Part shown: positions 309 to 7,923 of the stretch, piece after piece
Position numbering within the stretch: the stretch's first letter is position 1
Layout: the number at the start of each line of letters is the position of its first letter
Assembly: GCA_011364925.1 (NCBI GenBank)
Contig: RDOA01000002.1
Coordinates: forward strand, 1 to 64,000
Length of the DNA: 64,000 nt
Direction of reading: 5' to 3'
Source of the DNA: Promethearchaeota archaeon
GTDB lineage: Archaea > Asgardarchaeota > Lokiarchaeia > Sigyniarchaeales > SOKP01
Notes under the pieces: model-generated
The model's input: only the letters and a program-made list of their open reading frames with translations
Told to the model about the DNA's origin: nothing
The model's database searches: none
Position numbers and translations under genes: made by a program

Positions 309-1517
309 TTACTTAATAACAGTCGAGATTTTGCAATTTACTTTGTCCGTCTGTAATAACTTTATATTCTCTGGAACCTCGTTAAGAGTTATCTCTTTCG
401 TAATCATGGGAGTAACATCCATACCCGCTGCCATACAACTGATTACGTTAGGAAATGTGCCATGTCCTGAATGTCCTTGAGCGCCAACGATTCTTGCTCT
501 TCTAACTTGGAAATATTCTCCACACACTGGCATTCTCTGTTCCGCTCTGGCAACAACCACTACAGTACTATTAATTGCTTTGCATTCCCATATAGCATTT
601 TGTATATCTTCAGTACATATTTCAGGTAAACCTGCCGATTCAAGATAAAGAGCTGCTCCTTCATTGTCTGTAAATTCCTTAACCTTTTCTACAAAACTCT
701 CTTTTAGAGGATTTATGACGAAATCAGCACCCATTTTCTTAGCCAATAAAGCTCGAGGTTCTGATGGTTCTGAAATAACACATATTGCAGCTCCTGCCAT
801 TTTCAAAATCTTTATTGCCGCTAATCCAATTGGTCCCCCACCAAGAATTACTACATTTTCTCCCGGGCGAATTCCACCACCTCTCTCTATAACTGCATTA
901 TAGGCTACTGATGTTGGCTCAACTAAACTACCTATTTTGTAAATGTCTTTATATTTATCTTCTAATTTTTTTAAACTCCAACATAGTTTTGCCGGAACCG
1001 CAATATATTCTGCGAATGCTCCATCTATTGAGAAGCCAATCTCTTGTAGTCGTTCGCAGTGATTTGGATATCCATCACAACACGGTTTACATTCACCGCA
1101 CCATACCATTTCTTCAACTGTTACCGGTTCTCCTGTTTCGAAAGGTTTACCTGTTCTTTTACTTAATGCACGATTTCCTACTTCTACAATCTCTCCAGAA
1201 AATTCGTGACCAATCGTAACAGGAAAAGCAGTCAATCCTGGGTAATAGATATATCCATCTTCGTAGGCTTGGTTCATATGGACATCTGAACCACAGATTT
1301 TGTTCATTAAAAGATTTTTTTAATGAATTCCACAACGCTTAACTTTAATGAGTACTTCATTATCTTTAATTTTCGGTTTATCCTTATCAGTTAAACGAAC
1401 TTGTGGGTCTTTCCATACCTGTGAACCAAGATAAGTAAGTTTTCCCTTAATATCCTTAGACCCGATCTTAAAACTTGGCTTTGGATCCCATTTTGCACTT
1501 AATTCTACTGCTTTCAT
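309..1517 (-). CDS. iolM: scyllo-inosose 3-dehydrogenase (Zn-dependent MDR family), split by a 30-nt insert; proposed join(1328..1517,309..1297), 392 aa
   Basis: ORFs 1320..1517 and 309..1307 are in the same frame. Removing 30 nt gives KRCGICGSDVHM...GHEFSG, plus the structural Zn motif CGECKPC...C and GGGPIG. It closely resembles Thermotoga IolM as I recall it (GYIxYPGLTxFPVTxGHE). Confidence 0.85.
1298..1327 (-). other. candidate BHB/BHL-type micro-intron (30 nt) in iolM
   Basis: mRNA sense: GGAA|UUCAUUAAAAAAAUCUUUUAAUGAACAAAA|UCUGU. There is a perfect inverted repeat at 1303-1312/1318-1327 and an in-frame TAA at 1320-1322. Excision restores C-G-I-C. The exact boundary can slide by a few nt because of a flanking AAT repeat. 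Confidence 0.7.
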
Positions 1518-6058: not shown

Positions 6059-6204
6059 ATTTCTACCTTTTTGTATATATTGCATTTTTTGATAATAATT
6101 GATTTTGGCTTCTTATAAATCTTTTTTATGAGGGGTATTATTATTATGGTTTTTAATTAGCCAAATATTACATCTAATTATATTAAGCTTAGAGGTAATG
6201 TATC

Positions 6205-6768
6205 ATTAGAAAAAGATTAGAACAAGGACTTGTTCAAGTTTATTTTGGTCGGGGCAAAAATACTATATAGATAATAGTATTGTCTACAGGCAAGACCACT
6301 GCGGCAATAGGACAAGGCTTGAGAGCGACGGGGCATGGATTTAAGGTGTATATGATTCAGTTTATGAAGGGATACCCTCAATACGGTGAGGTTAAAGCGA
6401 TAGAAAATATCGCAAACTTCGAATTGAAACAATTCGGCACTCCAGACTTAATCGCAACTCCTGGAGAGATTGACTATGAAGAGGGAAGGAAAGGTATGGA
6501 ATTTGCAGAGCAAATTATTATGAGTGACGAATACGATATAGTTATTCTAGACGAGATTGGCGTAGCAGTCGAGTATGGGATTGTAGATATAAACGATTTT
6601 TTAAAATTAATTGACAACAAACCCGAAAAGGTCGAACTAATTATCACTGGAGGCCCTAAGATGCATCCTAAAATCAAGGAACGAGCAGATTTACTCACGG
6701 AAATGAGAATGATTAAACACTACTATTCCTCAAAAGGTATTAAGGCTCGTTTTGGTATAGAATATTAA
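6205..6768 (+). CDS. cobO: cob(I)alamin/cob(I)yrinic acid a,c-diamide adenosyltransferase (CobO/BtuR/CobA type), split by a 30-nt insert; proposed join(6205..6257,6288..6768)
   Basis: The frame upstream of the listed ORF encodes RLEQGLVQVYFGRGK. After removing 30 nt it continues GKTTAAIGQGLRATG...IQFMKG...ILDEI...ELIITG. There is no in-frame ATG/GTG/TTG between the TAA at 6196-6198 and the intron, so an ATT/ATC start after SD GAGGT (6192-6196) is inferred. Confidence 0.88.
6258..6287 (+). other. candidate canonical BHB micro-intron (30 nt) in cobO
   Basis: Structure: GGGC-AA|A-[AAUACUAU auagaua AUAGUAUU]-GUCU-AC|A-GGC. It has a 4-bp central helix GGGC/GUCU, two 3-nt bulges, an 8-bp hairpin and an in-frame TAG at 6268-6270. 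The spliced product reads GGC AAA GGC AAG (GKGK). Confidence 0.85.
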
Positions 6769-6789: not shown

Positions 6790-7923
6790 GTGGGAACTAA
6801 AAACATTATTATTAAAAATGTATTCTTTGATCATGATAAATTTCTTGGAAGACGGGAAAATTCACTTAAGATATATAATTCACCGCCCGGAAAAATGGTT
6901 CTCTCACCATTTAATTTAACATTCGATTCTATCCTTAAATTATTTGTCCTTAATTTTGATAATGATCCAATTTATTTCCGTATAGAGTTACAAATTACAC
7001 GCTTAAGAGATAAAGATTGCCCACTTGTAATCTTATATCGAAAAGATAATATGGTGGATATTTACTACACCAACGAAGATGTTATAAATACCCGAATGAA
7101 TTTGCTCAGAGCCCTATTTGAAAAGGTTTCTTTCAACCAGCTGGAAACTATCGAATATTATTTCCAATTCGATGATAGGGGTTTAGATGCGTATCTTTTT
7201 CTAGAAGATAAGTTAGAAAAGGAAATTGAAATTAAAGTTAATGAGAATTACCCTAATAGAGAATTATATACAATTTTGGCTCCGATGGGCGTTATAAGTA
7301 AGAAACCAAAATATTTCCCTATCGTATTCCTTAACAAATTTGGAATGGTCTTGGAAAAAAATACAGAAATCTTTGTTAGAATTCATGGGGAATATAGAAA
7401 CCTTATAGAAATGCCTTTTCAAATCAATGGGATGCAGGTTTATCCAGGACATTTCTCTTTAAATCCAATTGTCTGCAATTGGAATAAAAATGCTAGCAAC
7501 GACATTAGTCCAATAGTTCTAAATCCACCTTCACTTACCATCTCGGAGAACAATATTAACCTCGCCCTCAAAAATAACTCTAATTATTACGAGATAAAAG
7601 AAATCTCTTGGAAAGATCAAAATAATCAGATTGTTTCTTTTGAATTTTCCCCCGCAATTCCAAATTTAATATCTTTAAAGAACAATTCGAAAGTAAAAGG
7701 CAGGTTTTCTTGTGAAATAAATGAAATGAAAGGAGTGTTTGGAGGAGCCTATAATATTAGTCGTTCTGGGAATTCCATCGAGATTAGAATTGCACCCACC
7801 AAAGGATGGCAACTTTCATCAGGAAAGTTATGGTTGGAATCTTATACTTGGAAGGCAATAATACAAATCGAAGATGATGGTAATTTTAAAATTAATTCTT
7901 ATTGGCGTAGAGTCCCAGGTTGA
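6790..7923 (+). CDS. hypothetical protein
   Basis: 377-aa ORF directly downstream of cobO; no motif recognised. Confidence 0.7.
   Translation: MGTKNIIIKNVFFDHDKFLGRRENSLKIYNSPPGKMVLSPFNLTFDSILKLFVLNFDNDPIYFRIELQITRLRDKDCPLVILYRKDNMVDIYYTNEDVINTRMNLLRALFEKVSFNQLETIEYYFQFDDRGLDAYLFLEDKLEKEIEIKVNENYPNRELYTILAPMGVISKKPKYFPIVFLNKFGMVLEKNTEIFVRIHGEYRNLIEMPFQINGMQVYPGHFSLNPIVCNWNKNASNDISPIVLNPPSLTISENNINLALKNNSNYYEIKEISWKDQNNQIVSFEFSPAIPNLISLKNNSKVKGRFSCEINEMKGVFGGAYNISRSGNSIEIRIAPTKGWQLSSGKLWLESYTWKAIIQIEDDGNFKINSYWRRVPG

Follow-up and report, generated by a model that had tools for sequence, protein, structure and literature searches.

The cobO gene of a Promethearchaeia (Loki) genome is interrupted in its P-loop lysine codon by a 30-nt insert (6258–6287, plus strand) which, judged from its sequence, is very probably a pre-mRNA intron of the EndA type. 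With good confidence, the best overall explanation is an intron spliced by its host and carried as the selfish passenger of a nuclease cassette. The window denotes here the whole 64,000-nucleotide stretch of DNA analysed; its features at the cobO locus are as follows.

6192–6196, plus strand: putative Shine-Dalgarno-like GAGGT, 8 nt ahead of the probable start and kept in close relatives
6205–6257, plus strand: cobO exon 1, with a probable ATT start, encoding beta-strand 1 and the first half of the P-loop
6208–6248, plus strand: stretch duplicated by the cassette in the relative L209, where the old exon 1 ends at 6248 and the new one resumes at 6208; the window itself is without a cassette
6246–6298, plus strand: outer exon-exon pairing of UGGUC (6246–6250) with GACCA (6294–6298), separated from the bulge; 85.9% paired, with no compensatory change
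6252–6255, plus strand: 5′ strand of central helix H, GGGC, on the exon side
6256–6258, plus strand: 5′ bulge AAA, predicted cut at 6257/6258
6258–6287, plus strand: BHB-type (HBh′) intron of 30 nt, with an in-frame TAG at 6268–6270; the site is empty in 63 orthologs and holds a 29–33-nt insert in 19
6259–6281, plus strand: intron hairpin h′ of 8 bp (6259–6266/6274–6281) with a 7-nt loop; compensatory changes in 5 of 8 pairs, 94.9% of cells paired
6282–6285, plus strand: 3′ strand of central helix H, GUCU, on the intron side; 98.5% paired over 17 sequences, all changes one-sided
6286–6288, plus strand: 3′ bulge ACA, predicted cut at 6287/6288
6288–6768, plus strand: cobO exon 2; the spliced product is a 177-aa ATP:corrinoid adenosyltransferase (PF02572, E 4.8e-48)

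Deletion of 6258–6287 regains a frame of 177 codons with YFGRGKGKTTAA as its product, and this spliced form has both the PF02572 domain and the GxGKGKT loop of the CobA/CobO/BtuR family. In the unspliced reading, the PF02572 match begins at 6220 and passes through one TAG. An intronless ortholog matches the Salmonella-type CobA structures 1G5R and 4HUT (E 2e-20). No ATG, GTG or TTG start was found in exon 1 of the window gene, where ATT at 6205 aligns with the ATG of two relatives. Since 20 of 82 cobO orthologs, mostly intronless, share the lack of a standard start, it is a habit of the lineage and not a sign of decay. At 20 cobO loci, including the window (6192–6207), ATT, ATC or ATA stands behind a good Shine-Dalgarno sequence, which suggests that AUH initiation is frequent in this lineage. 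For the loci without a standard start, databases call N-truncated 168-aa proteins. Directly downstream of cobO (6790–7923) lies a 377-aa gene without a Pfam match that is conserved beside cobO in the genus.

Helix H joins GGGC to GUCU through two G-C and two G-U pairs. When 16 neighbouring 30-nt registers were tried, GKGKT was restored by two only (6258–6287 and 6259–6288), and the right protein coincided with BHB geometry (4/4 and 8/8 pairs) in the first of these alone; shuffles of the insert attained this geometry at a rate of 4 per 1,000,000. The first-pass annotation had proposed this very excision by the EndA rule, with an in-frame CobO Walker motif as its outcome, and its coordinates for the helix, the bulges, the hairpin, the TAG at 6268–6270 and a TTG open reading frame at 6280 are all correct. 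Its term "canonical" applies less well. The geometry is of the BHB type, but G6251 stands opposite G6289, both set by Arg and Gly codons, so that no exon helix closes the 3′ bulge directly, as exon-side helix h does in a strict canonical hBHBh′ motif. The outer flanks can indeed pair, as had been supposed, but solely across an internal loop, which makes the motif a relaxed HBh′; their register is not conserved, and RNAalifold favours a different one. Folding, which had been suggested as a check, gave a divided answer: the single-sequence energy of the window intron is not significant (z −0.98), whereas RNAalifold finds both H and h′ unaided. Helix H is weak, with its two G-U pairs, and is not part of the minimum-energy fold in most alleles. 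The evidence for the intron is comparative.

Among 82 distinct cobO orthologs, whose related genomes are not independent samples, 19 have an insert of 29, 30, 31 or 33 nt at exactly the window site and 63 are without one; 13 further insert-bearing copies occur on metagenome contigs. Left unspliced, each of the 19 inserts gives a stop within 9–11 codons, and cutting after the second nucleotide of each bulge yields an intact GRGKGKTT in all of them. Central helix H is paired in 75 of 76 cells across the 19 alleles, and over 17 aligned alleles 93.1% of all cells are paired, compared with 29–55% when the partners are slid. Compensatory cells number 17, a count reached by none of 500 shuffles in a test that kinship among the alleles inflates. 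An insert kept without its pairing, named in the first-pass annotation as grounds for rejection, is thus not what the orthologs have. Presence of the intron, which it had proposed to compare among relatives, is patchy. Five hairpin pairs show compensatory changes; the 4-bp helix, for which it had suggested looking for such changes, shows none, its only variation being exchanges of G-C for G-U or the reverse. Purifying selection acts on both exons: pairs of intron-bearing alleles have a dN/dS of about 0.10, compared with 0.08 for intronless pairs, and for exon 1 of intron-bearing alleles dN is about 0.09 and dS about 0.9. A pseudogene or assembly artefact, which the in-frame stop and the missing standard start might suggest, is refuted by these comparative data and retains next to no probability, given the selection, the recurrence of the same insert in 19 GTDB genomes and 13 metagenome contigs, and the equal lack of a standard start in orthologs that are mostly intronless.

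Translation without splicing is very improbable. It would take the form of a stop and restart, giving a short peptide and a 162-aa protein from an NTG in the insert, or of a ribosome hop. All inserts examined do have an in-frame ATG, GTG or TTG nine bases ahead of exon 2, where databases call a protein of 161–165 aa, but the TG and its frame are already dictated by the BHB geometry, and the covariation of the hairpin would go unexplained. The product would be without strand 1 and half of the ATP-binding loop; for the reading frame at TTG 6280, loss of the first half of that loop had been pointed out before and is confirmed. Hopping was rejected, as a hop between the matched Gly codons would remove two P-loop residues. 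On the intron reading, public databases mis-call these cobO genes as truncated proteins of 161–165 aa. A full-length protein in Logan (P0032) was considered as a spliced product and set aside: its contig also has a divergent gene and intergenic DNA, and is likelier to be an intronless genomic allele.

The genome, whose completeness is scored at 100%, has a single cobO and an intact, B12-dependent methylmalonyl-CoA mutase, and a search of it for a PduO or EutT alternative found none. For these reasons B12 adenosylation probably depends on splicing here, as the first-pass annotation had held. RtcB is intact, and two EndA paralogs are encoded. The first has its closest matches among crenarchaeal catalytic subunits; it retains the catalytic His, together with a loop that aligns with the Crenarchaea-specific loop (CSL). 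The second is without the catalytic His. The pair fits the (alpha-beta)2 type, which is described as cleaving relaxed motifs (PMC5829648, PMC12397907). By presence and motifs, then, both an EndA of the relaxed-motif type and a ligase are encoded. Run on the whole genome, ARAGORN found only about a dozen tRNAs, most of them intron-bearing, a low count consistent with heavily interrupted tRNA genes.

The further suggestion that splicing is a regulated checkpoint in coenzyme B12 synthesis is not supported, and we regard it as distinctly unlikely. Dependence on one cobO beside a B12-dependent mutase would suit such a role, as would a weak central helix with competing folds. The intron is nevertheless missing from 77% of orthologs (63/82), its loop varies freely in sequence and length, an Rfam search returned neither a cobalamin riboswitch nor any other family, and inserts of a similar kind are found in two other genes of this genome, for a dehydrogenase and a small GTPase, as well as in mannosidase genes of relatives. 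At least 10–11 changes of intron presence are needed on the cobO gene tree. A selfish element fits because presence is patchy, no riboswitch was matched, unrelated genes have inserts, and the intron travels with a homing-endonuclease cassette.

In relatives, which are Promethearchaeia (Lokiarchaeia) MAGs, this cassette measures about 1.45 kb and comprises a reverse-strand LAGLIDADG gene with two motifs, a divergent promoter, a replacement exon 1 and usually the intron, inserted at the conserved YFG-RGK-GKT codons of cobO. Locus L111 and its intronless sister L099 share 92% identity to either side of an insertion of 1.5 kb. This begins just past the host YFG codons and brings the LAGLIDADG gene, the divergent region between the genes, a second copy of exon 1 and, lastly, the intron. 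Ten nuclease loci at 52–100% identity were checked, and all ten flank cobO; the intron is present at eight of them, and an orphan exon 1 can be detected at nine. Among distant homologs (30–43% identity), cobO was found in the 1.5-kb flanks of 0 of 27. The predicted nuclease model resembles I-SceI, I-DmoI and bI3. A free-standing endonuclease thus adjoins the intron-bearing gene and moves with it, and the end of the gene exists in two copies, a native one that resembles the host and a foreign one that is in use. For L111 and L105, the two exons differ in their ancestry (Fisher p 1.5e-4 and 2e-5), but mosaicism is confined to specific triplets: a nearest-neighbour test for general exon co-conversion detected no trend (0.59 vs 0.53), and the allele of the window is itself not mosaic (p 0.40).

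Decay is visible in several forms. Two nuclease copies carry stop codons, three nuclease-free alleles retain a broken exon-1 scar 77 bp upstream, and an orphan exon-1 copy lies upstream of 5 of the 19 intron-bearing genes and of none of the 63 intronless ones. Six of nine orphan copies are altered or stopped, counting some changes at the junction that may belong to the cassette end, whereas every intron-linked exon 1 is intact; this contrast is an argument that the two exons have to be joined, and it weighs against a translational restart. Cassettes L215 and L220 are without an intron, which is therefore not required for mobility; their replacement exon 1 has a recoded QCYFG sequence, so that recoding can apparently take the place of the intron. 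The L220 cassette also contains about 2 kb of extra small ORFs.

The window allele can be set against that of L209, which is 94% identical to it up to 6248, then has 1,449 extra bases, and resumes its match at 6208. In exon 2, the two differ at 6 of the first 21 bases but agree at 57 of the 60 that follow, a pattern that suggests a right-hand crossover some 20 bp beyond the intron. Upstream of the window cobO the DNA is of host type, and beside the gene both the nuclease and an exon-1 scar are absent; the intron is nearest to the cassette-borne intron of L223 (29/33). Such an allele would be expected if the two exon-1 copies had recombined with each other, or if a short conversion had transferred the intron alone. 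It is fairly likely that the window intron arrived via a cassette of this kind.

An ancient intron, inherited vertically and lost precisely many times (as proposed for cbf5), with the nuclease cassette hitch-hiking on intron-bearing alleles, would account for the one site and similar core common to all inserts. Precise loss or back-conversion probably happens, because the intronless alleles L176 and L207 lie inside intron-rich clades with the exact spliced junction. As a general account it is unlikely. Well-supported branches force at least 10 changes; near-identical stems sit on exon 2 sequences only 65% alike (L105 vs L037); the window and L209 have different intron types in hosts 94% alike; where loci were compared, the orphan exon 1 was of the host's own lineage; and the histories of the intron sequences and the nuclease were already indicated to differ from that of exon 2. 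L176, L207 and L208, which are intronless with a cassette-type exon 1 and an exact spliced junction, are candidates for precise intron loss.

Under the passenger-intron reading, the nuclease would cut an intron-less cobO at the YFG-RGK-GKT site, and repair from a cassette-bearing copy, with crossovers in exon 1 and just inside exon 2, would leave the host's old exon 1 orphaned. The intron would split the nuclease target in the DNA, and EndA would restore the message: the (alpha-beta)2 enzyme would cut each bulge behind its second base, and ligation of AA to A by RtcB would recreate the P-loop Lys codon and with it the 177-aa CobO. The nuclease would then decay and be lost, by deletion or by looping out between the two copies of exon 1, with an intron-only gene, as in the window, as the end state. 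Geometry, covariation, frame repair, selection, cassette anatomy, mosaic junctions, nuclease decay and scars are demonstrated at the sequence level. Analogy with F-CphI/psbA (PMC6083498) and with the mobile ORFs of fungi (PMC3630166) makes cutting at the cobO site and immunity conferred by the intron both rather probable. Homing parasites typically insert in the most conserved motif (PMC2814812).

Several known systems share parts of this arrangement. The cbf5 pre-mRNA intron of Desulfurococcales and Sulfolobales (PMC2738675) has been called the only coding-region example (PMC7714728). The cobO intron works like it, with every testable feature of the relaxed BHB present: a short, ORF-less insert of patchy occurrence splits a key codon, and a hetero-oligomeric EndA cuts after bulge nucleotide 2, as predicted here. 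Unlike cbf5, the Asgard cobO is another gene in another phylum, its splicing is inferred from sequence, it is linked to a mobile nuclease cassette, and it is one of several such genes per genome. In the collaborative homing of F-CphI and the psbA group I intron of cyanophage S-PM2 (PMC6083498, PMC10448857), as here, a free-standing endonuclease lies beside an ORF-less intron in a conserved gene, and the intron is predicted to block self-cleavage. The present case differs in its cellular archaeal chromosome, its LAGLIDADG enzyme, whose cleavage is predicted, and its 30-nt protein-spliced intron in place of a ribozyme; the cobO cassette also inserts inside its target, bringing a replacement 5′ exon and promoter. 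In the fungal mitochondrial mobile-ORF hybrids of Allomyces atp6 and Glomus atp6, atp9, cox2 and nad3 (PMC3630166), an endonuclease ORF and a foreign gene end likewise displace the native end, left as a host-like orphan, but in cobO it is the 5′ end that is exchanged, the nuclease gene runs on the other strand, and the junction is usually marked by a BHB intron. A census of Asgard tRNA introns, confined to tRNA genes, found no general arrival route (bioRxiv 10.64898/2026.10.13.758758). Short BHB introns, repeated gains and an (alpha-beta)2 EndA background are shared with those tRNA genes, whereas here the target is an mRNA and the carrier is visible. BHB splicing and a LAGLIDADG nuclease are also combined in archaeal rRNA introns, which differ from cobO in that the nuclease of the latter is outside the intron and its target is a protein gene. 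These rRNA introns encode the nucleases themselves, as with I-DmoI.

In the literature searched, of which coverage was incomplete, no report was found of Asgard mRNA introns, free-standing LAGLIDADG genes or such cassettes, and cbf5 is the only confirmed BHB intron in an archaeal coding sequence; cobO adds a second target class, in the lineage nearest eukaryotes. A candidate delivery system is seen at each stage (empty site, full cassette, decayed nuclease, scar and intron only), and the relatives, which show the intron moving between genomes with the cassette, suggest a route by which such introns enter protein genes. It is somewhat favoured that Loki-type Asgard archaea splice many mRNAs by tRNA endonuclease, and that a free-standing LAGLIDADG family spreads micro-introns among them, each subfamily tied to one conserved catalytic motif (the cobO P-loop, mannosidase HWDREWY and possibly the small GTPase) and carrying a replacement first exon. 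If so, the window intron would be the end state of a full cycle of invasion, decay and excision, and a working route of intron gain would exist in the prokaryotes closest to eukaryotes.

Other inserts were sought in several ways. A de novo genome scan for frame-repairing BHB motifs was powerless, as real geometry scored the same as mirrored and off-frame decoys, and in an initial tblastn screen antisense ORFs drowned out any signal. A DNA-level screen returned two frame-breaking inserts in 217 kb of covered coding DNA, cobO among them. In a dehydrogenase of the window (1298–1327, minus strand), a 30-nt stop-containing insert in the Zn-ligand motif (CGICGSD) has a long perfect hairpin with an irregular 5′ side, is not a 4+3 BHB in the homology register, and is missing from all fetched orthologs that matched. 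A small GTPase gene of this genome (C35; L189 569–1304 and 1480–2871, minus strand), directly downstream of the genome's own LAGLIDADG gene, has at least two BHB-shaped inserts (30 and 31 nt) and two further breaks; the same pairing of genes occurs in L197, where some of the inserts lie at other positions. Another LAGLIDADG subfamily adjoins a mannosidase-like gene (GH38-type, by motif) in L199, L200, L202, L205 and L206, where the gene is interrupted between HWDRE and WY of its metal-binding motif, with a clear 30-nt BHB in L200, L202 and L205. In L181 and L188, a LAGLIDADG homolog and an Asn/Asp-tRNA synthetase-like gene are arranged tail-to-tail, the latter gene being possibly a further target.
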